Below are positions 2,842 to 44,844 of a stretch of DNA of 64,000 bases, piece by piece. A program made the translations under genes and the position numbers. Each line of letters begins with the position of its first letter. The first letter of the stretch is position 1. The notes beneath the pieces are model-generated. The model was given only the letters and a program-made list of their open reading frames with translations, did not search any database and was not told where the DNA came from. Source of the DNA: Acidimicrobiales bacterium. Its GTDB lineage: Bacteria; Actinomycetota; Acidimicrobiia; Acidimicrobiales; Aldehydirespiratoraceae. The DNA lies in NCBI GenBank assembly GCA_965207755.1, contig OZ242297.1, positions 2,311,406 through 2,375,405 on the forward strand, read 5' to 3'.

Positions 2842-3597
2842 CTACGAGGTCCGTGACTCCCCCGTGGCCGGGTCGAGGCCGTGGGCTGCGAGCAGCTCCC
2901 GCTCCTCGTCGCTGAGGCCGCCGCGGGCTTCGATAAGGTCGGGACGGCGCTCGATGGTGCGGGCCAGCGAATGGGCCCGGCGCCAGCGGGCCACCCGCCC
3001 GTGGTCGCCGGACAGCAGCACCTCGGGCACGGACCATCCCCGGAAGCTCGCCGGCCGGGTGTATTGCGGGTATTCCAGCAGCCCGTCGCTGAAGGACTCC
3101 TCGGCGGTGGAGGCCTCGTTGGAGAGCACTCCCGGCACGCAGCGCGCCACCGCCTCCATCACCACTAGGGCGGCTGCCTCACCGCCCGAGAGGACAACAT
3201 CGCCGATCGAGACCTCGCCGTCCACCAGGTGCTCGCAGACCCGCTCGTCGACGCCCTCGTAGCGCCCGCAGAGCATCGAGAACCCGGTGGAGGAGGCCAG
3301 TTCGCCCGCCATGGCCTGGTCGAAGCGGCGACCTGCCGGCGACAGGCAGAAGAGCGGTCGGGGCGGATCGACCGCCTCCACCGCGTCGAACAGGGGCTGG
3401 GGCGTCATCACCATTCCCGCTCCCCCGCCGAAGGGCGCGTCATCGGTGCTCCGGCGGCGGTCGGTGGCGGCCGTCCTGAGGTCGTGGACCCTCACGTCGA
3501 GCGTTCCGGCGGAGCGGCTGCGCCCGATGACCGAGGCCGAGGCCATCGCCTCCACCAGGTCCGGGAAGATCGTGAAGACGTCGATGCGGAAGCTCAT
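2842..3597 (-). CDS. trmD: tRNA (guanine37-N1)-methyltransferase
   Basis: The internal ATG at 3597 gives MSFRIDVFTIFPDLVEAM...; also GGGAGMVM and SIGDVVLSGGE motifs. The start overlaps the rimM stop (ATGA-type junction). Confidence 0.95.
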   Translation of the reverse strand: MSFRIDVFTIFPDLVEAMASASVIGRSRSAGTLDVRVHDLRTAATDRRRSTDDAPFGGGAGMVMTPQPLFDAVEAVDPPRPLFCLSPAGRRFDQAMAGELASSTGFSMLCGRYEGVDERVCEHLVDGEVSIGDVVLSGGEAAALVVMEAVARCVPGVLSNEASTAEESFSDGLLEYPQYTRPASFRGWSVPEVLLSGDHGRVARWRRAHSLARTIERRPDLIEARGGLSDEERELLAAHGLDPATGESRTS

Positions 3598-4097
3598 GTC
3601 GCCTCGAACAGCCCGTCGGGAACCTCCACCTCGATCCGCTCGCCGGGCACCGAACGGACGAGGAAGCGCAGCGGCACGAGGGCGCCGCCGGCGAGCTCGA
3701 GCAGGTCTCCGGCCGGACCGGCCACAACCGACGACACCAAGCCCCGGTCCGTGCCCGACTGGTCGACCACCCGGGCGCCGATCAGCTCGTGGACCCACAG
3801 CTCATCGGGGTCCGCGATCGGCGCGGCCCGCAGCACCAACCCCCTCAGAGCCTCGGCCTGGCTGCGGTCGTCGACACCGTCGAAGGCCACCAGATGGCGC
3901 CCGCTGTGGGGCCGGGCCGACGACACCCGCAGGATCCCCACATCGGTCCGCAGCTCCGATCCGGGCGCCAGGCGCTCGGGCCGGTTCGACACCAGCGTGA
4001 CGGCCACCTCGCCGCCGGTGCCGTGGGGCCGCCCGACGCGGCCGACCTCCAGCAACGACGCCGTCCCGGCGCCGGACGAGTCGACGCTCTCAGCCAC
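3594..4097 (-). CDS. rimM: 16S rRNA processing protein RimM
   Basis: LLEVGRVGRPHGTGGEVAVTLVSNRPERL... followed by a PRC-barrel C-terminal part. It sits in the conserved rpsP-KH-rimM-trmD-rplS context. Confidence 0.93.
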   Translation of the reverse strand: MAESVDSSGAGTASLLEVGRVGRPHGTGGEVAVTLVSNRPERLAPGSELRTDVGILRVSSARPHSGRHLVAFDGVDDRSQAEALRGLVLRAAPIADPDELWVHELIGARVVDQSGTDRGLVSSVVAGPAGDLLELAGGALVPLRFLVRSVPGERIEVEVPDGLFEAT

Positions 4098-7702: not shown

Positions 7703-9388
7703 TCAGGGGTCTGCTGGGTCTGGGCGTGTCCAGGGGCCTGCGCCGCCTATGTGGGTCACGGTCTCGGCTCGGGGCGGGTCGTATTGGCTGTGGGCGGCCC
7801 AGTGGAAGTCCAGGCCGAAGTCGTGGCGGCGGTTGCCGTCGTCGTCGGTGGCGGGCAGCCCCCGCAGCGGCTGGTCGGGGCCGGCCCGGCGGTCGATGGG
7901 GACCAGCCGATGCACCGCGAGGACCCTGTGGTGCTCGTCGAGGAACGTCAGGTAGGCGCGCACGTCCTCGATGACGAGGTCCTGGAGTGTCTCGGTGTCG
8001 ACGGCGCCGGGATGCGAGGTCGGCGCCGCGAGGTCCACCCGGGTGCTCCACTGGCGGATCGCGGCGTGGTCTCCGGGCCCGAGCGACGGATCCAGGGGCG
8101 CCCAGTTCGCGCCGAAAGCGGGGTCGGCCGCTTGTCGCAGCACCCAGGAGACGCCCCACGGCGACGTGCGTGCCGGGTCGACCGCGAGGCTGGGGTCTCC
8201 GCGGAAGGAGCGGCTCAGGTCCGGCCGCGGCGACATCTCGGCGCTCACCGCGAGCTCGAAGCGCTGCGGCATCTCAGTCACCGCCGCCGCGTCCAGCACG
8301 AACGGCGCCACCTCCCCGGGCTGCAGCGTCAACGCGAACACCGACTCCTGTTCGCCCCACGTCACCGTCACCCGGCGCGCGAACAGCGCCGCGGATCTGT
8401 TCTGCACCAGCCCCAGCAACTCGCCGCCGCGCAACGCAGCGGTGTCCCACAACAGCACCACCTCATCGGCGGGCGCCTCCACCGCGAACACGCCGAGAGG
8501 CGCCCGATAGCCCAGCAGTTCGCCCCCGTAGCCCAGACTGTGGCCGCAGCCGTACAGGCACGCCGTCTCCCGCGCGGTCCGCTGCGCGGCCTCCGTCGCG
8601 GCCTGCGGCGACTCCCTGGGCGGCCCGAACCCGTCCCAGGTCACGTGCGCGTACAGCGGGGCGCCTTCGACGCCGCACCCGGGCCGCAGCTCGAAGACCT
8701 CGCCGAAGATCACGTTGAGGTCGGCCTGTCCGGGGCTGGGACCGACACGCCAGATCTCGTCATAGACCGCCGTCAGGGTGTCGTCGGTGTCGCCGCACAG
8801 CCAGAGGACCTTGCCCAGCAGCGGTTCCCAAGGCGACTGCTGCTCGACGCGCAGCGGGCCCGCGCCCTTCCCGACCACCGCGCCGGGCCGCCCCGGCCGG
8901 GCCACCAGCCCGCCGGGCCGACCCGACCCGTCCGAACCCCCCGACCAGAAGACACCCGCCCCGCCGGGGCCCTCCCGGCCGACATCGACGCTCCCCGCAC
9001 CGTCATCGACGCTCCCCGCACCGTCATCGACCCCGCCGCCGCCGACAGCGACGCTGGAGGAACGGGACCCGTCGAGCGGTCCCTCACCCGAACCCGGCCC
9101 GGGCACATCCCCGGCCGGCACCACCCCGCCGACAGGCACGCCGCCGGGCACAGCGGGCTCGGGCTCGTCCCGCGGACCAGGGAACCATCCGCTGCCGGGC
9201 TCGGCCGCGGCCGGGGCTGCCGGCGGCGTCGCCGCGCCCTGGCCGACAGGCTCGGGCGACGCGCACGACACGGCACCGGCCAGCGCCAGCGCCGCCCCCG
9301 CCGCGCCCCATGGCGCCCGGCGCGCACGGCGGCCGTGTCCCGCAAGCGCGCGACGGCGCGCCGCGGCCGCTCTCAGCGGATGTGGCAT
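7703..9388 (-). CDS. Uncharacterised lipoprotein, family X copy 1 (Cys-rich N-domain plus one LVQN/QPGEVAPF module)
   Basis: The ATG at 9388 gives MPHPLRAAAARRR...AALALAGAVSC, a lipobox. It is paralogous along its whole length to 13170..14978 and shares a module with the 766/768-aa proteins. Its start overlaps the upstream gene's stop by 16 nt. Confidence 0.8.
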   Translation of the reverse strand: MPHPLRAAAARRRALAGHGRRARRAPWGAAGAALALAGAVSCASPEPVGQGAATPPAAPAAAEPGSGWFPGPRDEPEPAVPGGVPVGGVVPAGDVPGPGSGEGPLDGSRSSSVAVGGGGVDDGAGSVDDGAGSVDVGREGPGGAGVFWSGGSDGSGRPGGLVARPGRPGAVVGKGAGPLRVEQQSPWEPLLGKVLWLCGDTDDTLTAVYDEIWRVGPSPGQADLNVIFGEVFELRPGCGVEGAPLYAHVTWDGFGPPRESPQAATEAAQRTARETACLYGCGHSLGYGGELLGYRAPLGVFAVEAPADEVVLLWDTAALRGGELLGLVQNRSAALFARRVTVTWGEQESVFALTLQPGEVAPFVLDAAAVTEMPQRFELAVSAEMSPRPDLSRSFRGDPSLAVDPARTSPWGVSWVLRQAADPAFGANWAPLDPSLGPGDHAAIRQWSTRVDLAAPTSHPGAVDTETLQDLVIEDVRAYLTFLDEHHRVLAVHRLVPIDRRAGPDQPLRGLPATDDDGNRRHDFGLDFHWAAHSQYDPPRAETVTHIGGAGPWTRPDPADP

Positions 9389-9837
9389 GACGGTTTGTGC
9401 TTGTCGAGCGGCCCCCAGCCGCTGCCGCCGGTGTAGGTGCCCTCGTAGGCCTCTGCTGTCAGCGTGATGCCGCTGTAGATGATCCCGACCTGCAGGCATC
9501 TGTTCCTGTAGCGGCGGTTGATCTCATCGGCGTCGGCGCCGCTGGCGGGAGTCTCCTGCTGCCACCGCTCCGCCAGCGTCGTCACCGCCAGGTCAGCGGC
9601 CCTCTGACGGGCATCGCTCGAGCGGACCCTCTCCGCGGCGCCGCCCACCGTGTCGCCCATGAGCACCACCGCAACCGCGGCGATCCCCGCCACCGCGGCC
9701 ACCACCAGCAGCCACTCCAGAGTCGTCAACCCCTCCTCGCGCCCGGGCCGCGCACCGGTCCTGCCGCGCCGGCCGATGCCCGGGCCGCCGCCGACCGGGC
9801 GCAGGCCGCCGCGGCGTCGCCTACCCGGCGCCGTCAT
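9373..9837 (-). CDS. Type-IV/Flp-pilin-like protein, copy 1 (basic leader, G/LTTLEW motif, hydrophobic helix, C-terminal Cys pair)
   Basis: MTAPGRRRRGGLRPVGGGPGIGRRGRTGARPGREEG|LTTLEWLLVVAAVAGIAAVAVVL, with Glu at +5 after the Gly. The start was chosen by alignment with copy 2. Two conserved Cys lie near the C-terminus. Confidence 0.75.
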   Translation of the reverse strand: MTAPGRRRRGGLRPVGGGPGIGRRGRTGARPGREEGLTTLEWLLVVAAVAGIAAVAVVLMGDTVGGAAERVRSSDARQRAADLAVTTLAERWQQETPASGADADEINRRYRNRCLQVGIIYSGITLTAEAYEGTYTGGSGWGPLDKHKPSCHIR

Positions 9838-12121
9838 GCACGCCGCCCACGGTGATGGCGAAGTCGTGGTATTCGTAGTTCGGCAGGAACACCACCAGGA
9901 AGGACGAGTCCAGGCCGATGCGATGCACTTGGACCGGGCCATACGTGCCGTCATCGCGGGTTGTCTCTATGTAGGGGGTCAACTCGCTCACGTCGAGGAC
10001 CCTGTCTTCGTCGTCGAGCCGGGTCAGGTAGACCCGCAGGTCCTCGACCACCAGGTCCGCCACCTCGCCGGCGACGCTGGGATGCGAGGTCGGCTCCTCA
10101 AGCCGGATGAGCGTCTCGTAGGCTTGGACCCAGTCGTCGCGCGACACGCCCTCGGGGCGGACGATGTGGGGGTACCATCCCAGCACGTGCTCGACCTGAC
10201 CCCAGGTGTCGGCCCAGATGCCGGGCAGTCCCGAGACTAGGAACGAACGCCGCAGGTCCGGCTCGGGCGTCAACTGCGCGCTCACCTCCAAGCCGATCGA
10301 CTCAGGGTCTGAGGGCCCCTGATATCCCCCTATCTCGAAGGGCGCCACCTCGCCGGGCTGCACCGTCAACGGGAACACCCACCTGCCTTCGCCCGCAGAC
10401 ACCGTCACATGGCGAGCGAACAGCCTGTCGGACATGTTCTGCACCAGGCCCCTGACCGTCTCGCCGTCCACCAGCACCGAATCCAGCCGCACCGCCACCT
10501 CGTCGCTGAACACGTCTGAGTCGTAGCGGTCAGGCCAGTAGTCCGCGTACCCGAACTCGATGATGCTCCAAGGCTGGGCCTTCCTCAGCGGCCCCGGAAG
10601 ATCAGCAGCCGCGCCGTCGCCGCCGGGCGTCTCAGAGCCCGGCCGCGGACTCCCATCGGGCCCGTCGGCGCCCTCGGCGCCGTCGTGGGCGCCGCCCACG
10701 GTGATGCCGAGGTTGAATCTGCCGTAGGTGCTGCCCGGGGTCGGCAGGAACACCACTAGGCGGTGTCTGTTCTCGCGGTCGGCTCGGCGCGCCGGGACCA
10801 CGCGGCGTCTGCCGTCGTTGCCGGTCACCTGTGCGTAGGGGGTCAACTCGCTCACGTCGAGGACCCTGTCCTCGTCGTCGAGCCGGGTCAGATAGACCCG
10901 CAGGTCCTCGACCACCAGGTCCGCCGCCTCGCCGGCGACGCTGGGATGCGAGGTCGGCTCCTGAAGCGAGACGGACGTCTCGTAGGCGTGGCCCCTGTCG
11001 CCGCGCGACACGCCCTCAGGGCGCACGATGTGGGGGAACCGGCGATACACCTCCTCGATGTGGTCCCAGGTGCCGGCCCAGACGCCGGGCAATCCCGAGA
11101 CCCGGAACGAACGCCGCAGATCCGGCTCAGGCGTCAACTGCGCGCTCACCTCCAAACCGATCGACTCAGGGTCTGCCGGCCCGCGGTAGCCGTCGATCTC
11201 GAAGGGCGCCACCTCGCCGGGCTGCACCGTCAACGGGAACACCCACCTGCCTTCGCCCGCAGACACCGTCACATGGCGAGCGAACAGCCTGTCGGACATG
11301 TTCTGCACCAGGCCCCTGACCGTATCGCCGTCCACCAGCACCGAATCCAGCCGCACCGCCACCTCGTCGCTGAACACTTCTGAGTCGTAGCGGTCAGGCC
11401 AGCCGTCCAAGTACCCCAACTCAAAGAAGGCCCCATTTCCCAGCGCGCGCCTCAGCGGCCCCGGACCATCAGCAACCGCACCGTCGCCGCCCGGCGCCTC
11501 AGAGCCCGGCCGCGAACCCCCATCCGGCGCCTCGGCGCCCGCGCCGGGCTCTCGGGCGCCCCCGACGCCGTCAGGCCCGGCATCACCGGACGGATCCTCC
11601 CCATCAGCCGGGCCGGCAGCATCCCCGGACACCGCGGCCCGCCCCACCGCCACCGCACCAACCCCCCGACCGGGCATCCCGCCAGCGGACCCGTCGCCGG
11701 GCGCGAGCGCCTCCGCGGCGGCGTCACGGACCCCGGCCCCCGCACCGGGCATCCCGCCAGCGGACCCGTCGCCGGCGCCTCCCGCCGCTGCGACCGCACC
11801 CGCAGCATCGCCGGCGTCCCGGCGTGGGTCAGCGATCCCGAAGCCGTCAACGGCACCGGAGCCGGCGTCCTCGAACCACCCGCCGCCGGCGCCGGAGCCC
11901 GTGCCGTCGAACCACTCCGCACCACCGCCGGGCGTGTCAAGCGGATCGCCCGCACCGGACGCGGCGTCGGGCCGCCCGCAGCCCGCCAACAACACAGCCG
12001 CAACCCACCAGACCAGCAGCCGCCTCCGCCCAGTACCGCACCCCCGGCCAAGCACAGCAACGTCGCCCGCCCGCTCGGCCCCATCCGCCCCGACACGCCC
12101 CGCGGGCGTCCGGCCCCGCAT
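9821..12121 (-). CDS. Uncharacterised lipoprotein with two tandem LVQN/QPGEVAPF modules, copy A (766 aa from MRGRTP; alternative ATG at 12145)
   Basis: Signal and lipobox RRRLLVWWVAAVLLAGCG, a Gly/Ala/Asp-rich linker, then two modules of about 270 aa. Near-identical to 15822..18128 except for the last 135 aa or so. Confidence 0.8.
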   Translation of the reverse strand: MRGRTPAGRVGADGAERAGDVAVLGRGCGTGRRRLLVWWVAAVLLAGCGRPDAASGAGDPLDTPGGGAEWFDGTGSGAGGGWFEDAGSGAVDGFGIADPRRDAGDAAGAVAAAGGAGDGSAGGMPGAGAGVRDAAAEALAPGDGSAGGMPGRGVGAVAVGRAAVSGDAAGPADGEDPSGDAGPDGVGGAREPGAGAEAPDGGSRPGSEAPGGDGAVADGPGPLRRALGNGAFFELGYLDGWPDRYDSEVFSDEVAVRLDSVLVDGDTVRGLVQNMSDRLFARHVTVSAGEGRWVFPLTVQPGEVAPFEIDGYRGPADPESIGLEVSAQLTPEPDLRRSFRVSGLPGVWAGTWDHIEEVYRRFPHIVRPEGVSRGDRGHAYETSVSLQEPTSHPSVAGEAADLVVEDLRVYLTRLDDEDRVLDVSELTPYAQVTGNDGRRRVVPARRADRENRHRLVVFLPTPGSTYGRFNLGITVGGAHDGAEGADGPDGSPRPGSETPGGDGAAADLPGPLRKAQPWSIIEFGYADYWPDRYDSDVFSDEVAVRLDSVLVDGETVRGLVQNMSDRLFARHVTVSAGEGRWVFPLTVQPGEVAPFEIGGYQGPSDPESIGLEVSAQLTPEPDLRRSFLVSGLPGIWADTWGQVEHVLGWYPHIVRPEGVSRDDWVQAYETLIRLEEPTSHPSVAGEVADLVVEDLRVYLTRLDDEDRVLDVSELTPYIETTRDDGTYGPVQVHRIGLDSSFLVVFLPNYEYHDFAITVGGVHDGAG

Positions 12122-12123
12122 CG

Positions 12124-12479
12124 TCACACTCGGTGCCAGCTGCATGTCCCCTGTGTGGGGCAGTGCTTGATGTAGAGGACCCTGGTACCCACAGCATTCA
12201 CGAACCCTTCACCGAGAACCCTCCGGGCAGCGCACGTCGGCCGCCGCGGACCCCGCACCGAGACGCCGCAGCCGCTCCGGCGCGCCCTCCAGCCCAGGAA
12301 ACCCCACCAGACCGAACACCGCCGCCGACACCGCCGGCAGCCACAACAGACCCGGACGCGCCCGACCTGTCCGCCGGACCGCCCCGCATCTGCACGGCGA
12401 CCGTCGCTGCACCCCCAAAACTGTACACAACCCTCACCGGCCGCCACAGCCGCCCACCCCGGACACGCCGGCTGCCATG
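12124..12479 (-). pseudogene. Deletion derivative of the leader-ORF plus 884-aa gene: 73-aa leader ORF copy (12209..12430) joined to the last 27 codons or so of the large gene
   Basis: The DNA about 12205-12479 matches about 20775-21055. The 12124-12210 segment encodes ...FVNAVGTRVLYIKHCPTQGTCSWHRV, identical to the C-terminus of the 18131..20785 protein. The roughly 2.5 kb in between is absent. Confidence 0.75.
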
Positions 12480-12486
12480 CGCCCGG

Positions 12487-12862
12487 GCCGGACCGGCCAC
12501 GACCGACGCCACCAAGCCCCGGTCCGTGCCCGACTGGTCGACCACCCGGGCGCCGATCAGCTCGTGGACCCACAGCTCATCGGGGTCCGCGATCGGCGCG
12601 GCCCGCAGCACCAGCCCCCTCAGAGCCTCGGCCTGGATGCGGTCGCCGATGCCGGCGAAGGCCACCAGGTGGCGCTTGTTGTGGGGTCGGGCCGAGGAGA
12701 CCTGCAGGGTCCCCGAGTCGGTCCGCAGCTCCGATCCGGGCGCCAGGCGCTCGGGCCGGTTCGACACCAGAGTGACGGTCACCTCGCCGCCGGTGCCGTG
12801 GGGCCGCCCGACGCGGCCGACCTCCAGCAGCGGCGCCGTCCCGGCGCCGGACGAGTCGGCCT
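12487..12862 (-). pseudogene. Partial copy of rimM (roughly residues 5-128), lacking its own start and the C-terminal PRC-barrel end
   Basis: The DNA aligns base for base with 3709-4083, with scattered substitutions. It encodes DSSGAGTAPLLEVGRVGRPHGTGGEVTVTLVSNRPERLAPGSELRTD...IADPDELWVHELIGARVVDQSGTDRGLV. Confidence 0.85.
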
Positions 12863-12882
12863 GTTCAGTCACGCAGCCCGGA

Positions 12883-13137
12883 AGGCGCCCGATAGCCCAA
12901 CTCCTCGCCGCCGAAGCCGAGACTGTGGCCACAGCCGTACAGACACCCCGCCTGCTGCGCCGCGTCGGTCGCCTCCTCCGGCGACGCCCTCGCCGAGCCG
13001 AACCCGTCCCAGGTCACGTGCGCGTACAGCGCAGCGCCCTCGCGGCCACGCTCGGGCCGGATCTCGAACAGCTCGCCGAAGATCACATTGATGTCGGCCT
13101 GCCCAGGGCTGGGACCCACACGAACCGTCTCATTCCA
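12883..13137 (-). pseudogene. Fragment of a family-X lipoprotein gene (part of the Cys-rich N-domain only)
   Basis: Encodes VRVGPSPGQADINVIFGELFEIRP...LYAHVTWDGFGSARASPEEATDAAQQAGCLYGCGHSLGFGGEELGYRAP, matching the interior of 7703..9388 (DNA about 8490-8760). It has no signal peptide and no module. Confidence 0.8.
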
Positions 13138-13169
13138 GGCGCGCATGAGCGGACGGGTGCCTGTGTGCG

Positions 13170-14978
13170 TCACGGGCCCGCCGCGTCTGCGCGTGTCCAC
13201 GGGCCTGCGCCGCCTATGTGCAGCACGGCCTCGACTTCGATCGGGTCGTATTCGCTGTCGGCGGCCCAGTAGAACTCCAGACCGAAGTCGTAGATCAACT
13301 CGCCCATGCCGTTGTACTGGAGGTTGCCGTCTTCGTCGCGCACAGGCAGCCCCCTCAGCGGCTCGTCAGGGTCGGCCCAGCCGTTCTCGGGGACCAGCCG
13401 ATGCACCGCGAACACTCTGCCGTGCCCGTCGAGGAACGTCAGATAGGCGCGCATTTCCTCAACGACCAGATCCTCCAACCCGGCCACCACATCGGGATGC
13501 GACTCCGGCGCCACCAACTCCACAGAGATGTTCCACTCGCGCATATTGACCTCATCGCCGGGTCCCAGCGACGGATCCAGAGGCGCCCAGTTCGCGCCGA
13601 AGTCCGGGTCCGCCATCTGCTGCTGCACCCAGCCGACGTCCCAATACGACGAATGCAGCGCACCGAACGGGAAATCGGCGAAGAACGAGCGGCTCAGGTC
13701 AGGCTGCGGCGACAGCGCCGCGCTCACCTCGACCTCAGACGGCTCCGGCAGCACAGAGGACCCGGCGGCGTCCAGCACGAACGGCGCCACCTCCCCGGGC
13801 TGCAACGTCAACGCGAACACCGACTCCCGCCCGCCCCACCTCACCGTCACCTCACGCGCGAACAACTCCGCGGACATGTTCTGCACCAGCCCCAGCATCT
13901 CGCCGCCGCGCAGCGCCACCGAATCCCACAACAGCACCACCTCATCGACAGGCGCCTCCACCGCGAACGCCCCATAGGGCGCCTCATAGCCCAACAACTG
14001 GCCGCCGTAGCCGAGATTGTGGCCACAGCCATACAGGCACGCCCCCTCCTGCACCGCCTCCGTCGCCTCCTCGGGCGACCCCCTCGCCGGCCCGAACCCG
14101 CGCCAAGTCAAATGCACATACAACCGGCCGCGGTCGCCGCCGCACTCACCGTCTTGGAAATCGGCGATCTTCAGGCCCATCAGATACAGATCAGACGACG
14201 GCGGATCGGCGACACGCACCACCTTCTCGAACATCGCCGCCACCGCGTCGGCGTCACAAACCTCCAAGACATCGCCCATAACCGCATCCCAAGGTAGATA
14301 CCCCCAGGGCTCGTCGCTGCGAAGCGGACCCTGACCATTCGCAACCACCGCCCCGCGCTGGTGCGGCCGGCCAACCAACTCGCCAGGCTCACGGAACCCG
14401 CCCGAACCCCCCGACCCAGACACCGAAACCTCCTCCGAAACACCCACCCCGCCGCCATCAACAACAGCCCCGACATCATCAACGGCCCCGCCATCGACGG
14501 ATCCGCCATCATCAACGGCCCCATCACCGGCCCCGCCATCATCAACAACCCGTCCGCCGTCAGCGACACCGCCGCCAACAGCATCACCGCCGCCGCCGTC
14601 AACGACCACGACACTGGAAGGCATGCGCTCGTCGGACAGGCCCCCACCAGCACCCGTATCCGACACATCCCCAGCCGACACCGCCCCGCCGCCGGCTCCT
14701 GCAGCGGCATCGGCTGCGGGCCCATGCCCGTGCCCCGGATCAGAGAACGAGCGACCGTCGACTGCCTCACCGCCGCCGGGCTCGGCTGCGGGCTCAGAGA
14801 TGTGCCCCCGATCAGAGAACCAGCCGCCGACACGCTCGTCCACGGCCGGGGGCGCCGCCTCGCCTCCGCCGTCAGGCTCAGACGGCGCGCACGACACGGC
14901 CCCGACCAGCGCCGCCAACACCAACCCCGCGCCGCCCAGGACCCGAAGCCGGCCATCCTTCACCGTCGAAGCTCGCAT
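13170..14978 (-). CDS. Uncharacterised lipoprotein, family X copy 2
   Basis: The ATG at 14978 gives MRASTVKDGRLRVLGGAGLVLAALVGAVSC, a lipobox. It has a Gly/Asp/Val low-complexity linker, a CLYGCGHNLGYGG N-domain and one LVQN/QPGEVAPF module. It ends HIGGAGPWTRADAAGP, like copy 1. Confidence 0.8.
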   Translation of the reverse strand: MRASTVKDGRLRVLGGAGLVLAALVGAVSCAPSEPDGGGEAAPPAVDERVGGWFSDRGHISEPAAEPGGGEAVDGRSFSDPGHGHGPAADAAAGAGGGAVSAGDVSDTGAGGGLSDERMPSSVVVVDGGGGDAVGGGVADGGRVVDDGGAGDGAVDDGGSVDGGAVDDVGAVVDGGGVGVSEEVSVSGSGGSGGFREPGELVGRPHQRGAVVANGQGPLRSDEPWGYLPWDAVMGDVLEVCDADAVAAMFEKVVRVADPPSSDLYLMGLKIADFQDGECGGDRGRLYVHLTWRGFGPARGSPEEATEAVQEGACLYGCGHNLGYGGQLLGYEAPYGAFAVEAPVDEVVLLWDSVALRGGEMLGLVQNMSAELFAREVTVRWGGRESVFALTLQPGEVAPFVLDAAGSSVLPEPSEVEVSAALSPQPDLSRSFFADFPFGALHSSYWDVGWVQQQMADPDFGANWAPLDPSLGPGDEVNMREWNISVELVAPESHPDVVAGLEDLVVEEMRAYLTFLDGHGRVFAVHRLVPENGWADPDEPLRGLPVRDEDGNLQYNGMGELIYDFGLEFYWAADSEYDPIEVEAVLHIGGAGPWTRADAAGP

Positions 14979-15374
14979 CACGACAGCAGCGAGCCGACGG
15001 CCGGGTCGATCCACTCGCAGGCCGCCGCAGTCGCGGCCACAGCCGCGCCGCATTCCTCGTTGTCGCCCGCCCTCACATAGAGCACCCTTCCGTCCACGTT
15101 GCCGACGTACCAGCCGTTGCCGTGCGGTCCCAGCCTCGACGCTCGCGCGTACTGGTCGTCTGGGACGGCCTTGATCAGCGTGTGGGCGTAGCCGGTGTGC
15201 GCCTTGGGGAACACCGCGTACTTGGTGCCTTCGTGCGCGATCTTGTCCGGGTTGGTCAACGAGACGAACGCGACCTGTCCTCTTGGCGAACCTGTAGACG
15301 CTGCCCGCGGGGTTGCACGACCCGCCGTAGACGCGCAGCCCGCCGTCGCCGCACGCCTCGACCGGCGCCGTCAT
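14978..15374 (-). pseudogene. Stand-alone paralog of the C-terminal domain of the 884-aa protein; apparently split by a 1-nt frame change
   Basis: The ATG at 15374 (ATGA overlap with the pilin-like stop) gives MTAPVEACGDGGLRVYGGSCNPAGSVYRFAKRTG. Homology then continues in the next frame: VAFVSLTNPDKIAHEGTKYAVFPKAHTGYAHTLIKAVP...GWYVGNVDGRVLYVRAG. Compare ...GGATVYHPDG...LGFVSFTDTDGTKYAAFP...GWFVNAVGTRVLYIKHC in the large protein. Confidence 0.6.
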
Positions 15375-15838
15375 CGGATCGCGAGAATGCTGCACAGCGG
15401 CGTGTTGTGCCAGCCGGTCGGCCGGTCGGGGTCATAGATGCCTTCGACGATGTCGGTTCCCGCCAAAACGTCGGCGTAGATGATCTCCAGTCGCCGGCAC
15501 CGCCGCCGGTAGCGGGCGTTGATCTGGTCGGCGTCGCTCTGTGTGGAGGGCCGCTGCTGCTGCCAGGCGTCCTCGAGCTCGGTGGCCGCGAGGTCCGCGG
15601 CCTCCTGACGCGCGCTGTGGGATCCGACCTGCTCGGCCGTGCCGCCGACCACGCTCTGCACCAGCACCACGCCCAGCGCGGCCAGCCCCGCCACCGCGGC
15701 CACCACCAGCAGCCACTCCAGAGTCGTCAACCCCTCATCGCGCCCGGGCCGCGCACCGGTCCTGCCGCGCCGGCCGGTGCCCGGGCCACCGCCGACCGGG
15801 CGCAGGCCACCACGGCGTCGCCTACCCGGCGCCGTCAT
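15371..15838 (-). CDS. Type-IV/Flp-pilin-like protein, copy 2
   Basis: MTAPGRRRRGGLRPVGGGPGTGRRGRTGARPGRDEG|LTTLEWLLVVAAVAGLAALGVVL. The first 50 aa or so are nearly identical to copy 1 and the mature part is divergent. The Cys pair is conserved. Confidence 0.78.
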   Translation of the reverse strand: MTAPGRRRRGGLRPVGGGPGTGRRGRTGARPGRDEGLTTLEWLLVVAAVAGLAALGVVLVQSVVGGTAEQVGSHSARQEAADLAATELEDAWQQQRPSTQSDADQINARYRRRCRRLEIIYADVLAGTDIVEGIYDPDRPTGWHNTPLCSILAIR

Positions 15839-18128
15839 GCACGCCGCCCACGGTGATGGCGAAGTCGTAGTCGTCGTAGTTCAGCAGAAACACCACCAGG
15901 AAGTACCTGTTCTCGCGGTCGATTCGGCGCACCTGGATCGGGCCGTAGGTCCCGTCGTCGCGGGTTGTCTCCTTGTAGGGGGTCAGCTCGCTCACATCGA
16001 CGATGCGGTCGGCGTCGTCGAGCCGGGTCAGGTACACCCGCAGGTCCTCGACCACGAAGTCCGCCGCCTCGCCGACGACGCTGGGATGCGAGGTCGGCTC
16101 CTCCTCAAACTCGATGAACGTCTGGTAGACGTAGGCCAACTCGTCGCGCGACACGCCCTCGGGGCGGACGATGTGGGGGTACCATCCCAGCACGTGCTCG
16201 ACCTGATCCCAGGTGTCGGCCCAGAACCCCGGACTGTTCTCGACCCAGAACGAACGCCGCAGGTCCGGCTCGGGCGTCAGCTGCGCGCTCACCTCCAAGC
16301 CGATCGACTCAGGGTCTGAGGGCCCCTGATATCCCCCTATCTCGAAGGGCGCCACCTCGCCGGGCTGCACCGTCAACGGGAACACCCACCTGCCTTCGCC
16401 CGCAGACACCGTCACATGGCGAGCGAACAGCCTGTCGGACATGTTCTGCACCAGGCCCCTGACCGTATCGCCGTCCACCAGCACCGAATCCAGCCGCACC
16501 GCCACCTCGTCGCTGAACACGTCTGAGTCGTAGCGGTCAGGCCAGTGGTCCGAGTACCCGAACTCGATGATGCTCCAAGGCTGGGCCTTCCTCAGCGGCC
16601 CCGGAAGATCAGCAGCCGCACCGTCGCCGCCGGGCGTCTCAGAGCCCGGCCGCGGACTCCCATCGGGCCCGTCGGCGCCCTCGGCGCCGTCGTGGGCGCC
16701 GCCCACGGTGATGCCGAGGTTGAATCTGCCGTAGGTGCTGCCCGGGGTCGGCAGGAACACCACTAGGCGGTGTCTGTTCTCGCGGTCGGCTCGGCGCGCC
16801 GGGACCACGCGGCGTCTGCCGTCGTTGCCGGTCACCTGTGCGTAGGGGGTCAACTCGCTCACGTCGAGGACCCTGTCCTCGTCGTCGAGCCGGGTCAGAT
16901 AGACCCGCAGGTCCTCGACCACCAGGTCCGCCGCCTCGCCGGCGACGCTGGGATGCGAGGTCGGCTCCTGAAGCGAGACGGACGTCTCGTAGGCGTGGCC
17001 CCTGTCGCCGCGCGACACGCCCTCAGGGCGCACGATGTGGGGGAACCGGCGATACACCTCCTCGATGTGGTCCCAGGTGCCGGCCCAGACGCCGGGCAAT
17101 CCCGAGACCCGGAACGAACGCCGCAGATCCGGCTCAGGCGTCAACTGCGCGCTCACCTCCAAACCGATCGACTCAGGGTCTGACGGCCCCTGATATCCCC
17201 CTATCTCGAAGGGCGCCACCTCGCCGGGCTGCACCGTCAACGGGAACACCCACCTGCCTTCGCCCGCAGACACCGTCACATGGCGAGCGAACAGCCTGTC
17301 GGACATGTTCTGCACCAGGCCCCTGACCGTATCGCCGTCCACCAGCACCGAATCCAGCCGCACCGCCACCTCGTCGCTGAACACTTCTGAGTCGTAGCGG
17401 TCAGGCCAGCCGTCCAAGTACCCCAACTCAAAGAAGGCCCCATTTCCCAGCGCGCGCCTCAGCGGCCCCGGACCATCAGCAACCGCACCGTCGCCGCCCG
17501 GCGCCTCAGAGCCCGGCCGCGAACCCCCATCCGGCGCCTCGGCGCCCGCGCCGGGCTCTCGGGCGCCCCCGACGCCGTCAGGCCCGGCATCACCGGACGG
17601 ATCCTCCCCATCAGCCGGGCCGGCAGCATCCCCGGACACCGCGGCCCGCCCCACCGCCACCGCACCAACCCCCCGACCGGGCATCCCGCCAGCGGACCCG
17701 TCGCCGGGCGCGAGCGCCTCCGCGGCGGCGTCACGGACCCCGGCCCCCGCACCGGGCATCCCGCCAGCGGACCCGTCGCCGGCGCCTCCCGCCGCTGCGA
17801 CCGCACCCGCAGCATCGCCGGCGTCCCGGCGTGGGTCAGCGATCCCGAAGCCGTCAACGGCACCGGAGCCGGCGTCCTCGAACCACCCGCCGCCGGAGCC
17901 GGAGCCCGTGCCGTCGAACCACTCCGCACCACCGCCGGGCGTGTCGGGCGTGTCGCCCGCACCGGACGCGGCGTCGGGCCGCCCGCAGCCCGCCAACAAC
18001 ACAGCCGCAACCCACCAGACCAGCAGCCGCCTCCGCCCAGTACCGCACCCCCGGCCAAGCACAGCAACGTCGCCCGCCCGCTCGGCCCCATCCGCCCCGA
18101 CACGCCCCGCGGGCGTCCGGCCCCGCAT
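15822..18128 (-). CDS. Uncharacterised lipoprotein with two tandem LVQN/QPGEVAPF modules, copy B (768 aa; alternative ATG at 18152)
   Basis: Same architecture as 9821..12121. The ATG at 18128 lies 2 nt after the stop of the 884-aa gene. Confidence 0.8.
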   Translation of the reverse strand: MRGRTPAGRVGADGAERAGDVAVLGRGCGTGRRRLLVWWVAAVLLAGCGRPDAASGAGDTPDTPGGGAEWFDGTGSGSGGGWFEDAGSGAVDGFGIADPRRDAGDAAGAVAAAGGAGDGSAGGMPGAGAGVRDAAAEALAPGDGSAGGMPGRGVGAVAVGRAAVSGDAAGPADGEDPSGDAGPDGVGGAREPGAGAEAPDGGSRPGSEAPGGDGAVADGPGPLRRALGNGAFFELGYLDGWPDRYDSEVFSDEVAVRLDSVLVDGDTVRGLVQNMSDRLFARHVTVSAGEGRWVFPLTVQPGEVAPFEIGGYQGPSDPESIGLEVSAQLTPEPDLRRSFRVSGLPGVWAGTWDHIEEVYRRFPHIVRPEGVSRGDRGHAYETSVSLQEPTSHPSVAGEAADLVVEDLRVYLTRLDDEDRVLDVSELTPYAQVTGNDGRRRVVPARRADRENRHRLVVFLPTPGSTYGRFNLGITVGGAHDGAEGADGPDGSPRPGSETPGGDGAAADLPGPLRKAQPWSIIEFGYSDHWPDRYDSDVFSDEVAVRLDSVLVDGDTVRGLVQNMSDRLFARHVTVSAGEGRWVFPLTVQPGEVAPFEIGGYQGPSDPESIGLEVSAQLTPEPDLRRSFWVENSPGFWADTWDQVEHVLGWYPHIVRPEGVSRDELAYVYQTFIEFEEEPTSHPSVVGEAADFVVEDLRVYLTRLDDADRIVDVSELTPYKETTRDDGTYGPIQVRRIDRENRYFLVVFLLNYDDYDFAITVGGVHDGAG

Positions 18129-18130
18129 CG

Positions 18131-20785
18131 TCACACTCGGTGCCAGCTGCATGTCCCCTGTGTGGGGCAGTGCTTGATGTAGAGGACCCTGGTACCCACA
18201 GCATTCACGAACCAGCCGTAACCATCACCGACACCAGCGCCCACTTCGCGGGCGTACTTGTTCTTGGGGACGCCCCTGATGAGGGTCTCGGCGTAGCCGG
18301 TGCCGGTGCCGGCCTCGCCGATGTCGTTGGCCGGGAACGCCGCGTACTTGGTGCCGTCGGTGTCGGTGAAGGACACGAACCCCAACGGCAGCGGGGTTAT
18401 GTCATACCAGATCTCGAAAGTTCCGCAGCCGGCGTCCTTGCAGTGCTTCCTGGTCCTGCCGTCGGGGTGATAGACCGTCGCGCCGCCCTCGGCGTTGGCG
18501 ATGTCATACCAGTGGCAGTCGAAGGGCTCGCCGCCGGTGCCCCACCGGCAGCGGCGATCCTGCACCCCTCCGTCGGGATCTGAGCCCGCCACCCGGCGGA
18601 CCCTCAACGCGTCGTTGGCGTCGTCATAGATGGTCTCAGCTATAGGGATGCAGTGATTGATGTCGGGATCCTCCCCGAACCGCTTCTGCGCCTTGCACGC
18701 AAGCCAGGTCTCAAGCTGTTTCTTGAGTTTCTCCTCGCTCGCGCAGAGCCCGCCGAAGAGGTGCTTCGCGACCTCGACGGCGGCGTGGTTGACGTTGGCC
18801 CGTTTGGCGTGGTGCCACTCCTTGACCGGCTCCCACAAGTCGAGTTGCCACGGGCCCACGCCGGGGCTCCAGTGCGCGCGCGGCTCGCCGGTCTGGGTGC
18901 CCTTGGAGAACAGGCCGGTGCTCTCATCGTTGGTGAACAGCGAATCCCACCGCGACAGGTCCATCAGCGACGGGTTGTCCTTGTGGAGTTCGCGGATCGG
19001 TATGGCCAGCACGTACGCGGCCAACTCGTTGGCGGTGACCGGATCGCTGTCTCGTGTGACGCACTCCCTGCCGGCGTTGCCGTCGATCACCCGGCGAGCC
19101 GCGGACATGACCCCGTCGATGATCGCGGCGCCGTACCGGTAGGCCGCGGTGCGGCACCGCTGGTCGGCGGGGTTCCTGAACAGCGGAGAAGCGCACACGC
19201 GGGGCCGGCAGCCGTCGTCGGAGCCCCTGGCGAACGCCGACATGTAGGTCTGATCAGACGGGCACACGTTCACCGCGGACACCGAGAGGGTGAACCCGCC
19301 CGGGTTCCGGTCGGCGCGTCTGGCTACCTCGACGGTGTAGCGGCCCACCATCCCCTCGGGGTTGAGCAGCGCGCTGACGGTCGCGGCGCGGGCTTCGCCG
19401 CCGGGGCTGGAGGCCGTGTGCAGCGGCTTGGCGCTGCCGGCGTCGCCGTCATGCACATACACATCGATGGCATGGTCAGAAACCGCCACGACGGTGACCG
19501 TCGCCGCCTCCGCCAGCGTGAGCGTGTAGCGCTTGGCGTAGTAAGGGGTCTGGTCGCCGTGCTGCGACGACTTGCACGACGACACCCACACGTTGCCCAC
19601 CCGGGCCCCGCCGAGGGTGATCCGCAACTCGCAGACAACCGGCGACACCACGGTGAAGACCGCCGTCTTGCGGGCGGCGGCGTAGCCGTCGCTAAAGCAC
19701 CTGACCGTGACCTGCACTTCGCCCACCGCCGATCCGGTGTCCAACCTCACGCTGCGCTGCGTGCCGTCGTCGTCGGGGATCGGCAGCGGCGCCGACAGCG
19801 GGCCCGACCCCTGCCACGCATAACAGTTCGCGTCGCCTGGAACCACACCGAAGTCCGCATCGATCGGCGACACGTCCGAGACGTCCCCCAAGCCGGTGAT
19901 CGCGACCCTGGCGGGTGTGGCGGGCTCAGGCTCGTCTGAGTCCGTGTCAGGCTCGTCTGAGTCCGTGTCAGGCTCGTCTGAGTCCGTGTCAGGCTCGTCT
20001 GAGTCCGTGTCAGGCTCGTCTGAGTCCGTGTCAGGCTCGTCTGAGTCCGTGTCAGGCTCAGGCGTGTCAGGCTCGGGCTCGTCTGAGTCCGTGTCAGGCT
20101 CGTCTGAGTCCGTGTCAGGCTCAGGCGTGTCAGGCTCGGGCTCGTCTGAGTCCGTGTCAGGCTCAGGCGTGTCAGGCTCGGGCTCGTCTGAGTCTGTGTC
20201 GGGCTCAGGCAGGGTCGTCGTGGTGGTGGTACTCGTCGTTGTTGTGCTCGTCGTGGTGGTCGTGGTGGTGGTGCTGGTCGTTGTTGTGGTCGTGGTGGTC
20301 GTGCTGGTACTGGTCGTGGTGGTGGGGTGGGTGTGGGGCACTGGGTCCGCGGTCACGTAGCGGTAGCAGGAGATGGCGCGCCCGTAGGCCTCCTGGGTGT
20401 AGCCGCCGGGGCAGCGCATCGACGTGCGCGTCGACCACGCGTCCACCGTCTTGTAGCAGCCAGCCCCGATCCTGCGATACCCCGCCGAGCACACATAGCG
20501 GGTCTCAGTCACGGTGCGGGTGCGGCCCCTCACCCAGCACCCCGTGCCCGAAGTCGCCGACGTGCTGCAATAGCGCGTGCCCCTGATCCCGCGCCAGTAG
20601 CCCTGACGCACGCACCCCGCCCGCGTCGCCATGTCGACACACACCGTCTTCGTCGTCGTCCTCGCAGTGGCGTCCACCCGCACGCTGCGGGTACACGACG
20701 GACCGCTCCGCACCCCGAGACAGACCCTCACCGTCGTCACCACCACCGGCGCGTACTCGCGTTTGCGGCAGCCCGAACCCTTCAC
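18131..20785 (-). CDS. 884-aa multidomain protein: Cys-rich repeats, poly-Thr/Ser linker, DTDSDEP acidic heptad repeats, a PPC-like beta domain (tentative), a possible lysozyme-like region (tentative) and a conserved C-terminal domain
   Basis: Long ORF with coding-type repeats and visibly lower GC than its neighbours. The GTG start overlaps the stop of the 72-aa leader ORF (GTGA). No signal peptide at the annotated start. Confidence 0.75.
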   Translation of the reverse strand: MKGSGCRKREYAPVVVTTVRVCLGVRSGPSCTRSVRVDATARTTTKTVCVDMATRAGCVRQGYWRGIRGTRYCSTSATSGTGCWVRGRTRTVTETRYVCSAGYRRIGAGCYKTVDAWSTRTSMRCPGGYTQEAYGRAISCYRYVTADPVPHTHPTTTTSTSTTTTTTTTTSTTTTTTTTSTTTTSTTTTTTLPEPDTDSDEPEPDTPEPDTDSDEPEPDTPEPDTDSDEPDTDSDEPEPDTPEPDTDSDEPDTDSDEPDTDSDEPDTDSDEPDTDSDEPDTDSDEPEPATPARVAITGLGDVSDVSPIDADFGVVPGDANCYAWQGSGPLSAPLPIPDDDGTQRSVRLDTGSAVGEVQVTVRCFSDGYAAARKTAVFTVVSPVVCELRITLGGARVGNVWVSSCKSSQHGDQTPYYAKRYTLTLAEAATVTVVAVSDHAIDVYVHDGDAGSAKPLHTASSPGGEARAATVSALLNPEGMVGRYTVEVARRADRNPGGFTLSVSAVNVCPSDQTYMSAFARGSDDGCRPRVCASPLFRNPADQRCRTAAYRYGAAIIDGVMSAARRVIDGNAGRECVTRDSDPVTANELAAYVLAIPIRELHKDNPSLMDLSRWDSLFTNDESTGLFSKGTQTGEPRAHWSPGVGPWQLDLWEPVKEWHHAKRANVNHAAVEVAKHLFGGLCASEEKLKKQLETWLACKAQKRFGEDPDINHCIPIAETIYDDANDALRVRRVAGSDPDGGVQDRRCRWGTGGEPFDCHWYDIANAEGGATVYHPDGRTRKHCKDAGCGTFEIWYDITPLPLGFVSFTDTDGTKYAAFPANDIGEAGTGTGYAETLIRGVPKNKYAREVGAGVGDGYGWFVNAVGTRVLYIKHCPTQGTCSWHRV
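19915..20210. repeat. Coding tandem repeat (21-nt unit GGCTCGTCTGAGTCCGTGTCA and longer variants) encoding DTDSDEP / PEPDTPEP; followed by a poly-Thr-encoding tract at about 20215-20335
   Basis: Read directly in the DNA. The units are contiguous with no spacers, and they lie in frame inside 18131..20785. Confidence 0.9.
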
Positions 20786-21000
20786 CGAGAACCCTCCGGG
20801 CAGCGCACATCGGCCGCCGCTGACCCCGCACCGAGACGCCGCAGCCGCTCAGGCGCGCCCTCCAGCCCAGGAAACCCCACCAGACCGAACACCGCCACCG
20901 ACACCGCCAGCAGCCACAACAGACCCCGACGCGCCCAGCCCCGCCGGGCCGCCCCGCCTCCGCACGGCGACCGTCGCTGCACCCCCAAAACTGTACACAA
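20782..21000 (-). CDS. 72-aa leader ORF with a signal-peptide-like hydrophobic segment (may be the detached N-terminus of the 884-aa protein)
   Basis: ...RRGWARRGLLWLLAVSVAVFGLVGFPG... The same ORF is conserved in the remnant at 12209..12430. Its stop overlaps the downstream GTG. Confidence 0.5.
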   Translation of the reverse strand: MCTVLGVQRRSPCGGGAARRGWARRGLLWLLAVSVAVFGLVGFPGLEGAPERLRRLGAGSAAADVRCPEGSR

Positions 21001-43403: not shown

Positions 43404-44594
43404 TCACCGCAGGACGATCTCCACCCAGCGGTCGGTCCAGGCGTTGCGCTGAGTCTCGACCTCGGCCGGCTCCAGGATGAACGGGTCCTCCGCGATCTCG
43501 GCGTGGGCCGCGAACTCCGGCGGGAGGGTGGCCGATTCGATCACGGGGAACACGAACATGTTGAGCGGGACGTCGTTCTGGAACGTCTCGGTGAGCATGA
43601 AGTCGATCAGCGCCCGGGCCCCTCCGGGGTTGCCGGCCCCCGCGAGCACGCCCGCGAACTCGATCTGGCGGTAGCAGCTGGCCGTGACCACGCCGGTGGG
43701 CGGCTCGTCGACGGGCGGATCGGCGAAGATGACCTCGGCGGGCGGGCTCGACGCGTACGACACCACTATCGGGCGGTCGCCCCCGCCGGCGGCGAACTCG
43801 CCGTAGTAGGCGTCCTCCCAGCCCGCGGTGACGGCCACGCCGTTGTCGCGCAGCGCGGCCCAGTAGTCCTCCCAGCCGTCGCCGTAGCGGGCGATGGTCG
43901 CCAGCAGGAAGGCCAGACCCGGCGACGATGTCTCCGGGCTCTGGACCACCAGCATTCCCGCGTAGGCGGGGTCGGTCAGGTCGTCGAGCGACGACGGCGG
44001 GGGCAGCGGGTCGCCGAAGGCGTCGACCCAGTAGTTGAGGCACACATCGCCGAAGTCGACGGGCGCGACCCGGTGCTCGGCGTCGAGCTCGAAGCGGTCG
44101 GGCACGTCCGCGAGGCCGGGCGACTCGTAGGACTCGAAGATCCCGCAGTCGAGTCCCCGCTGCAGGAAGGTGTTGTCGATCCCGAAGAGCACGTCGCCCA
44201 GCGGCGCCCCCGCGGTGAGGCACGCTTGGGCCACCAGTGCACCGGCATCGCCTGAAGCGAGTTGCTCCACCGCGATGCCGGTCTCGGCCGTGAACGCCTC
44301 AAGGGTCTCGGGCGACAGGGCGAACGAATCGTGGGTGAGCAGCGTCACCGTGGTTCCGGACGGATCTGATTCGCCCTCAGCCGATGTGGTGACAGCAGTC
44401 GTCGATTCGGTGGTCGAAGCAGCCGTGGGAGCGCCTTCGGTGGGAACGGTCTCGTCAATCGCCCGGTCACCGCTGCAGGCCGCGGCCACTGCGGCGACCG
44501 CGGCCACGGCGATGGTCGCCGCCCGGATCCGCGGACCGGCAGCGCGGCGGGGCGCGCCCGGCTCGCCGGGAGTTGGTGGGGGTTGGTGGTCCAT
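43404..44594 (-). CDS. thiB: ABC transporter substrate-binding lipoprotein (thiamine/TPP-type)
   Basis: The ATG at 44594 gives MDHQPPP...AVAAVAAACSGD, a lipobox. Periplasmic binding fold (VTLLTHDSFAL..., GDVLFGIDN...). Directly preceded by a TPP riboswitch. Confidence 0.85.
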   Translation of the reverse strand: MDHQPPPTPGEPGAPRRAAGPRIRAATIAVAAVAAVAAACSGDRAIDETVPTEGAPTAASTTESTTAVTTSAEGESDPSGTTVTLLTHDSFALSPETLEAFTAETGIAVEQLASGDAGALVAQACLTAGAPLGDVLFGIDNTFLQRGLDCGIFESYESPGLADVPDRFELDAEHRVAPVDFGDVCLNYWVDAFGDPLPPPSSLDDLTDPAYAGMLVVQSPETSSPGLAFLLATIARYGDGWEDYWAALRDNGVAVTAGWEDAYYGEFAAGGGDRPIVVSYASSPPAEVIFADPPVDEPPTGVVTASCYRQIEFAGVLAGAGNPGGARALIDFMLTETFQNDVPLNMFVFPVIESATLPPEFAAHAEIAEDPFILEPAEVETQRNAWTDRWVEIVLR

Positions 44595-44599
44595 CGGGT

Positions 44600-44700
44600 C
44601 TTCCTCCGCTGGCATTACCCAGATCAGGTCGGCGGGTCGACACCGCTGCGGTCGCGTGGATGCCCTCTCAGCCCGGCTGTCCCGAGCTCCCCGGTCTTGT
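44600..44700 (-). promoter_or_regulatory. TPP (THI-box) riboswitch controlling the thiBPQ-like operon
   Basis: The minus-strand RNA reads CCGGGGAGCUCGGGACAGCCGGGCUGAGAGGGCAUCC...GACCUGAUCUGGGUAAUGCCAGCGGAGGAAGACCCGAUG. It contains the conserved CUGAGA and ACCUGAUCUGGxUAAUGCCAGCG boxes. The 3' end includes the SD GGAGGAAG, 5 nt before the ATG. Confidence 0.9.
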
Positions 44701-44844
44701 TTGTCGCCCGAGACTATATGTGCGTCAGCGGCCGGCACCACGCTCGGCCCCGACGAGGCGACGCAGGCCGGGATGCTCCCTGAGAGGTCGTTGCGCCTCA
44801 GCCAGAGCTCGGCCAAGACGGCGAGACCGCCCGATCCTGGTAGA

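Follow-up and report, generated by a model that had tools for sequence, protein, structure and literature searches.

Tad pili are known mainly for adhesion. Prepilins of the Flp type obey the processing rule G/XXXXE[Y], where the slash marks the cleavage site; in type IV pilins, the Gly at -1 and the Glu at +5 matter for cleavage and filament assembly, but are not needed in a simple membrane anchor. Two small genes, pil1 and pil2, located in a 64-kb stretch of the Acidimicrobiales bacterium contig OZ242297.1 (hereafter the window, i.e., the whole stretch of DNA analyzed, which belongs to a complete 3.84-Mb genome assembly), encode the proteins P0001 and P0002, which are probably Tad/Flp (type IVc) prepilin-like proteins that act as module-specific minor or adaptor subunits. 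The closest described proteins are the Flp-type prepilins of the DUF4244 family (PF14029), which share with the products of pil1 and pil2 a basic leader ending in R-x-[DE]-x-G, followed by x-T-T-x-E-[YW] and a hydrophobic helix; the likeness extends to the tad-operon position after TadC in this lineage and to the presence of a short A24 peptidase in the genome. The differences are that the mature part of the genome's own DUF4244 prepilin is about 45 amino acids long, compared to about 118 in P0001 and P0002, that the latter contain an extra globular helical-hairpin domain with a pair of Cys residues, and that genes of their family, unlike those for DUF4244 prepilins, are often found outside tad loci, in cassettes. 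The TadE/TadF pseudopilins (PF07811; the Rv3654c family, TIGR03816) are similar in size and in the kind of processing motif, and are expected to be minor subunits; however, the N-terminal motif of the proteins in question is of the Flp/DUF4244 type (TTLEW), in contrast to the ATVEFAL motif of the TadE-like gene of the same genome.

Several other systems resemble this locus in the way they work or are organized. The type IVb minor pilins CofB and TcpB are pilin-type subunits encoded together with secreted partners, CofJ and TcpF, respectively, the release of which is described as pilus-dependent (PMC6048534, PMC9565799, PMC10120004). This likeness is one of operation only: the minor pilins belong to other pilus classes and to diderm pathogens, and no sequence or fold relation to them was found for the pilin-like family. 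The Kil system of Myxococcus xanthus is a Tad-like machine tied to contact killing, and in passages of that report its authors describe the toxin as yet undiscovered and say that it is not clear if toxins are secreted by the machine as well (PMC8460266). Kil differs in being a diderm system with a secretin, and the same passages link no toxin genes to its pilins (PMC8460266), whereas the Kil-like connection between Tad and killing considered here is a genomic one. Polymorphic toxin loci, finally, are similar in that they encode a large secreted protein with a common body and alternative C-termini (one of them PLA2-like in the present case), have a small partner gene downstream, and show truncated C-terminal fragments and tandem repeats of modules; they differ in that the lipoprotein family of the modules described below is partly common to different C-terminal types. 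We know of no polymorphic toxin pattern in which a pilin-like gene is a fixed third member. Literature searches yield no publication on this family or on its link to such modules: a search on polymorphic toxins and Tad pili retrieves the Kil paper only, the Aldehydirespirator literature retrieved contains no mention of pili, publications on Acidimicrobiia and pilins, judged by their titles, address other subjects, and no paper was found with DUF4244 in the title or abstract.

The two genes are as follows.

pil1, 9373..9837, minus strand: P0001, 154 amino acids, prepilin-like; leader M1-G36, putative cut G36/L37, hydrophobic helix spanning about 37-62, C114 and C151 within the globular part (67-154)

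pil2, 15371..15838, minus strand: P0002, 155 amino acids, paralog of the pil1 product

The two proteins are 62% identical, being almost the same over the first ~58 residues and diverged over the remainder. In both, the Arg/Gly-rich leader M1-G36, which ends in REEG in P0001, precedes the sequence LTTLEWLLVVAAVAG beyond the putative cut, and about 25 hydrophobic residues make up the adjoining run; the segment LTTLEWLLVVAAVAGIAAVAVVLMG is modeled as a helix (residues 39-62). In an alignment of 76 family sequences, T38, L40, E41 (the +5 residue), W42, L43 and L44 are all invariant, and G36 (-1), C114 and C151 are each kept in at least 90% of the sequences, with the motif R-x-[DE]-x-G/LTTLEWLL conserved across homologs. 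This conserved pairing of Gly and Glu corresponds to the class III pattern. An earlier note on this DNA had described the two minus-strand open reading frames (ORFs), the Gly at -1 and Glu at +5 with the adjoining hydrophobic stretch, and a Cys pair near the C-terminus; all these features are present in both proteins, the Cys residues being 37 residues apart in P0001 and 35 in P0002. The Arg/Gly-rich composition that it assigned to the leader is also found, and 36 residues precede the putative cut.

The G+C content of the window is ~70-75%, so that long spurious ORFs are abundant and conservation had to carry the argument that the genes are real. A word-indexed search of a set of 5.8 billion proteins identifies 94 homologs, all unnamed or "hypothetical"; the organism labels, given for few of these, are Acidimicrobiaceae or unclassified bacterial metagenome-assembled genomes (MAGs). 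A search of 1.84 billion proteins with the 76-member profile detects 412 cluster representatives at E≤1e-3 and 296 at E≤1e-10. Among 107 genomes of the taxonomic family to which the window belongs, 32 contain matches, often in several copies each, and the named related records are MAGs titled Candidatus Aldehydirespirator, Aldehydirespiratoraceae, Poriferisodalis, Poriferisocius or Acidimicrobiia. The sequencing runs that contain the stretch are labeled sponge metagenome, and there is no RNA dataset among those listed for it. P0001 and P0002 are genuine members of a pilin-like family that is special to sponge-associated Acidimicrobiia. A further match to the family profile, at positions 50-128 (E=3e-46), is given by a database protein of 2604 amino acids (P0125) made up of 26 near-identical repeats of ~100 amino acids; this is apparently no pilin but the translation of a tandem repeat or a product of faulty assembly.

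The sole Pfam match of the two proteins is DUF4244 (21.2 bits, E=2e-4, for P0001 and 20.5 bits for P0002, with a gathering cut-off of 27 bits), and 63 of the 76 family members match this domain at E≤0.01, the best at 2.9e-5, which is still below the family threshold. In NCBIfam, there are only faint matches, to TadE-like and GspH/XpsH pseudopilins, and TIGR03816 is reached with E=0.0046 and 17 bits against a cut-off of 51. With a length of 154 or 155 amino acids, the proteins exceed the short Flp/Fap type (about 50-80 amino acids). The canonical DUF4244 pilin of the same genome consists of 70 amino acids, has the sequence RRRLDERG/QTTAEYALVIVGAAAV around its putative cut and is encoded by a gene flanked by one TadC-like and one TadE-like gene, the latter with the motif G/QATVEFAL. 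By comparison of these sequences, the N-terminus of P0001 is a signal of the same kind as that of the canonical pilin, and what differs is the added C-terminal domain; the pilin-like family, so judged, is a distant relative of DUF4244 and not a curated member. Thus, of the class III signal of pilin, Flp, TadE or DUF4244 type that had been proposed, the class III pattern and the DUF4244-like N-terminus stand, whereas assignment to TadE or to canonical Flp/DUF4244 fails by the thresholds. An AlphaFold2 model based on the family alignment (mean pLDDT 79.5, and above 90 for residues 81-154) shows a helix at 39-62, a low-confidence break, helices at 67-94 and 100-120, and a two-stranded beta-hairpin. 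The analogy with the D-region of pilins is not borne out, the model being a helical hairpin plus a beta-hairpin without a pilin match.

The earlier note had remarked that no pilus machinery is encoded nearby, and indeed there is no match to TadA, TadB, TadC or an A24 peptidase in the window, nor any such gene among its 30 annotated proteins; this is because the machinery is encoded elsewhere in the genome. The genome-wide search that the note had proposed, with the lack of a prepilin peptidase as the adverse outcome, finds both tad loci and peptidases. Two Peptidase_A24 genes, both outside the window (genome positions 2628125-2628742 and 3443185-3443862), score above the Pfam cut-off in the whole genome (50.1 and 28.2 bits); they encode proteins of 226 and 242 amino acids in which PF01478 is the sole domain found and which, given these lengths, are presumably of the TadV/FppA kind. 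There are four loci with TadA-like ATPases, none of them in the window. One of these, L010 (genome positions 2611000-2630900), lies ~240 kb from the end of the window and has the following order.

L010, first part: a SAF-domain (CpaB-like) gene, an unassigned gene, TadA (T2SSE), TadB (T2SSF), TadC (T2SSF), and P0003, a member of the pilin-like family

L010, after P0003: TadE-like ORFs, an insertion sequence (IS) element (rve), a gene for a 1382-amino acid protein, two members of the pilin-like family, and the 242-amino acid A24 peptidase

The GTG start of P0003 overlaps the TadC stop in a GTGA coupling, and the two further paralogs are directly upstream of the peptidase gene. The locus is interrupted at its positions 10090-10986 and 11068-15216 by the IS element (rve integrase) and the gene for the 1382-amino acid protein, which has weak DUF5006 and Ig matches; the interruption separates the TadC-linked pilin-like gene from the pair next to the peptidase. 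In five other genomes, family members have an A24 peptidase gene as a neighbor, which is the case in five of eight small loci around tad-type family members (four of the five score above the cut-off and one at 26.4 against 26.5). Among 68 loci around family members that were fetched from public genomes, 36 have Tad (TadA/B/C) or peptidase genes within 9 kb. These counts, like those given below for the same loci, are descriptive, given that related loci are not independent, and are based on tblastn because a gene caller relying on G+C content at third codon positions missed genes in relatives with lower G+C.

Members of the family also occur in a recurrent module. In the 20-kb surroundings of family members in other genomes, the order F1, lipoprotein gene, pilin-like gene, where F1 is a large toxin-like secreted protein, is found repeatedly, at times in tandem, with the pilin-like gene as the last gene of the module. 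F1 matches are present in 26 of the 68 loci; in 18 of these 26, F1 is upstream on the same strand, and in all 18 a match to the lipoprotein family lies between F1 and the pilin-like gene. F1 and tad genes occur together in 7/68 loci and neither in 13/68, several of which are short contigs. For example, locus L072 has the order F1, LipA, pilin-like gene, TadA-TadB-TadC, pilin-like gene, peptidase, and in L098 and L105 the row of F1, lipoprotein gene(s) and pilin-like gene stands opposite a convergent peptidase-TadC-TadB-TadA row. A maximum-likelihood tree built from 32 family members groups the cassette-linked copies, 17 in number, in a single clade (support 99/99), apart from the copies adjoining peptidase and TadC genes; pil1 groups with LipA-adjoining copies at 99/95. 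The window copies belong to a clade that is separate from the tad-operon pilins and is fixed in F1-lipoprotein modules.

The F1 proteins have a related body and at least three unrelated C-terminal types (a, b and c), and PPC domains are found in F1 relatives. Type c matches the prokaryotic PLA2 family (PF09056) with 29.5 bits at a cut-off of 29.4, two more matches being below the cut-off. Type a, to which the window protein P0004 belongs, is without a family match. Searches with P0004 yield no match at E≤1 among PDB sequences, and an atlas search with its C-terminal part reaches at most 0.84, with a weak SLT lead at 0.82-0.83, below the 0.9 mark. The N-terminal 153 amino acids of P0004 are matched in only 2 of the 107 genomes, and hence this domain is not a common part of F1 proteins. 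By analogy with polymorphic toxins, F1 would be a putative toxin and the downstream gene a putative immunity gene. The same genome contains a second island (L053, genome positions 2192000-2211000), with a PLA2-type F1 gene (1090 amino acids), an orphan PLA2-type C-terminal fragment (338 amino acids) and two additional pilin-like genes; another genome has an island at the syntenic site (L051).

In the window, the neighbors of pil1 and pil2 are the following.

lipA1, 7703..9388, minus strand: lipoprotein gene with probable start at 9388 (longest ORF to 9499) and lipobox-like AVSC; a LipA-specific N-domain, an Ig-like sandwich and a C-domain

lipB1, 9821..12145, minus strand: lipoprotein gene, 774 amino acids, with lipobox-like LLAGC, then two copies of a ~220-amino acid domain

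second F1 gene remnant, 12124..12498, minus strand: the upstream region and the signal-peptide ORF run straight into the last 26 codons, most of the gene being deleted

fragment of a lipA-type gene, 12865..13200, minus strand: 111 amino acids

lipA2, 13170..14978, minus strand: probable start at 14978, ~57% identical to lipA1

ORF of 93 amino acids, 14978-15259, minus strand: fragment resembling the C-terminal end of F1, 45% identical to residues 801-871 of P0004

lipB2, 15822..18152, minus strand: 776 amino acids, 94% identical to lipB1

F1 gene, 18131..20785, minus strand: P0004, 884 amino acids as read, upstream of lipB2; a Cys-rich N-domain, Thr-rich and acidic repeats, a middle region common to PPC-bearing relatives, and a ~400-amino acid C-terminal domain of type a

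5' ORF, 20782..21000, minus strand: signal-peptide-like start of F1 in a frame different from that of the body, an apparent frameshift

The lipoprotein calls are based on lipobox-like motifs (LAGC/AVSC) read by eye according to the usual lipobox definition. The stops of lipB1 and lipB2 (774 and 776 amino acids) overlap the start ATG of pil1 and pil2, respectively, by 17 nucleotides, and the pil1 stop overlaps the probable lipA1 start (9388) by 16. Hence the picture of a pilin-like gene sandwiched between two overlapping lipoprotein genes holds on both sides of the first copy, but only upstream of the second, the 93-amino acid ORF lying downstream, between pil2 and lipA2; likewise, two lipoproteins do flank the genes, but this description was incomplete, given that the recurrent module starts with the large toxin-like secreted protein. 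The ~220-amino acid domain is common to the four big neighbors (two copies in LipB, one in LipA) and, in this genome, is found here only; there is no Pfam family for the LipA and LipB neighbors. A model of LipA (pLDDT 78.3) gives an uninformative fold search with Foldseek (best E 1.6e-3, TM score ~0.13), and the best VIA match (Z 4.7) covers only an Ig-like sandwich at residues 150-230. A complex prediction for LipA1 residues 195-598 and the globular part of the pilin-like protein, run without controls, scores 0.02 against a mark of 0.32.

These observations are best compatible with the following scheme. The pilin-like protein would be inserted into the membrane by its hydrophobic helix and cut after G36 by one of the two short A24 (TadV-type) prepilin peptidases; the mature subunit could then be taken up by a Tad machinery that is encoded at least 240 kb away. 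The window copies would be module-specific minor or adaptor subunits, and might serve to display or export the large protein, or its lipoprotein partner, by linking it to a Tad pilus or a short pseudopilus. Several results weigh against this scheme. No curated pilin family is reached, with Flp_Fap (PF04964) and TadE (PF07811) absent among the Pfam matches at E≤1; BLASTP similarity of P0001 to the DUF4244 pilin of the genome is not significant, and a weak similarity (29% identity, E=0.006) links it to P0003, the TadC-linked paralog. Among the PDB matches of the modeled globular part there is no pilin (Foldseek best E 1.2, none at E≤0.001), and a wide VIA search (best Z 7.0) retrieves generic helical hairpins and no pilin. 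With respect to specificity, the variable part of the pilin-like protein is not simply matched to the neighboring lipoprotein, lipB1 and lipB2 being 94% identical whereas pil1 and pil2 diverge, and one lipoprotein family is encoded behind both type b and type c proteins. Furthermore, the F1 genes of the window are frameshifted or deleted, so that the local modules may be decaying.

The main rival explanation, which we consider unlikely, is that P0001 and P0002 are uncleaved signal-anchor proteins of pilin descent, the outward helical domain of which acts within the module, for example in immunity or as a receptor or holder of the lipoprotein, with no pilus involved. The separation of the cassette clade from the pilins of tad loci and its distance from the machinery in this genome are as this explanation would have it, as are the globular part without a pilin fold match and the location in modules that resemble toxin-immunity arrays. 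However, the Gly at -1 and the Glu at +5 are kept throughout the cassette clade, and in the 7 loci with both F1 and tad genes the module is directly beside tad or peptidase genes; both findings argue against the anchor explanation.

The structure of the island bears on another explanation, that these genes provide a reserve or alternative set of major pilins, recombination among which would vary the surface, with their place beside large proteins a by-product of island dynamics. A block of two cassettes sits between smc and ftsY. Cassette 1 consists of the F1 upstream region and the signal-peptide ORF fused to the last 26 F1 codons, then lipB1, pil1 and lipA1; cassette 2, of the F1 upstream region, P0004, lipB2, pil2, the 93-amino acid F1-type C-terminal fragment, lipA2, the lipA fragment and a second rimM N-terminal fragment. 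The identity of the cassettes is ~94% over the part that begins with the F1 upstream region and ends near codon 58 of the pilin-like gene, beyond which they diverge, and the synonymous divergence (dS) between pil1 and pil2 rises from 0.09 in the leader through 0.19 in the helix to 0.72 in the globular part, where the ratio of non-synonymous to synonymous divergence (dN/dS) is 0.64; this break in identity together with the rise in dS indicates a conversion or recombination boundary inside the pilin-like gene. Such a pattern, and the multiple copies of the family in many genomes, would suit a stock of exchangeable pilins. However, the order F1, lipoprotein gene, pilin-like gene recurs in 18/26 F1 loci and, within the cassette clade, the type b-adjoining copies from two genomes group at 94/86, which speaks for a role tied to the module and against random placement, so that the spare-pilin explanation appears improbable.

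The last explanation concerns the leader, which the earlier sections take as translated. In 31 of 32 homologous genes compared at the codon level, the residue before Leu(+1), read from the DNA, is Gly. Translation might instead begin at the TTG of Leu37, yielding a plain N-terminal transmembrane protein without a leader, and this TTG does closely follow a Shine-Dalgarno-like, GGAGG-like string, GAGGAGGGG, in both window copies; however, the spacing from GAGGAGGGG to TTG is a mere 2-3 nucleotides, the Leu(+1) codon is TTG in 16, CTG in 13 and CTC in 3 of the 32 homologs, i.e., a non-start codon in 16/32, the pattern R-[G/R/D]-[D/E]-x-G at residues -5 to -1 is maintained through differing codons, called homologs have ATG-started leaders of 6 to ~50 residues, and the leader dN/dS between the window copies is 0.30 (3 synonymous and 2 non-synonymous differences, over few sites), which makes this explanation hardly credible. 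A TTG start at Leu37 is ruled out by the CTG or CTC codons in 16/32 and the protein-level conservation of residues -5 to -1; the leader is part of the protein because Leu(+1) is often encoded by a non-start codon and the preceding residues are conserved with synonymous variation.

The rest of the region contains further traces of rearrangement. The P0004 gene as assembled is interrupted near its 5' end because the signal-peptide-like start is in another frame (20782-21000); at this site, contigs of two other sponge-metagenome runs are one base different in length, and the run that holds the stretch best agrees with the window, so that the frame break reflects a genuine inactivation at strain level or, alternatively, a fault in the assembly. 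Between the cassettes there is a partial second rimM within 12198-12932 (minus strand; RimM-like part ~12600-12830, RimM N-terminal domain with E=1e-13), in addition to the complete rimM at 3594-4097 in the usual ffh-rpsP-KH-rimM row; this second copy suggests that a rearrangement once brought the island and the rimM region together. In the interval from the island to smc, a long over-extended ORF (21090-~22400, minus strand) contains what by eye is sequence of a trypsin-like/PDZ (HtrA-type) protease. At 44170-49833 (plus strand), the window encodes a subtilase of 1887 amino acids with Peptidase_S8, P-domain and Calx-beta matches and weak DUF5006 and A2M bait-region matches, adjoined by a DDE transposase at 50041-51402; the sub-threshold DUF5006 match is common to this subtilase and the 1382-amino acid protein of the tad locus.

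The new element in these results is the fixed association of one pilin-like clade with toxin-like modules. Several hundred "hypothetical proteins" of sponge-associated Acidimicrobiia can thereby be named as a lineage-specific pilin family in two groups, one encoded with tad genes and peptidase and the other as the third gene of toxin-like modules, and the side-by-side placement in 7/68 loci provides a concrete candidate for matching cargo to a Tad filament. We tentatively propose that, in these monoderm sponge symbionts, the Tad machine might be a device for the delivery or display of polymorphic toxin-like proteins, each module having its own pilin-type adaptor and lipoprotein. If true, the Tad-linked toxin system so formed would be of a previously undescribed kind, and it would provide a genomic answer to the question of what a killing Tad apparatus might export.

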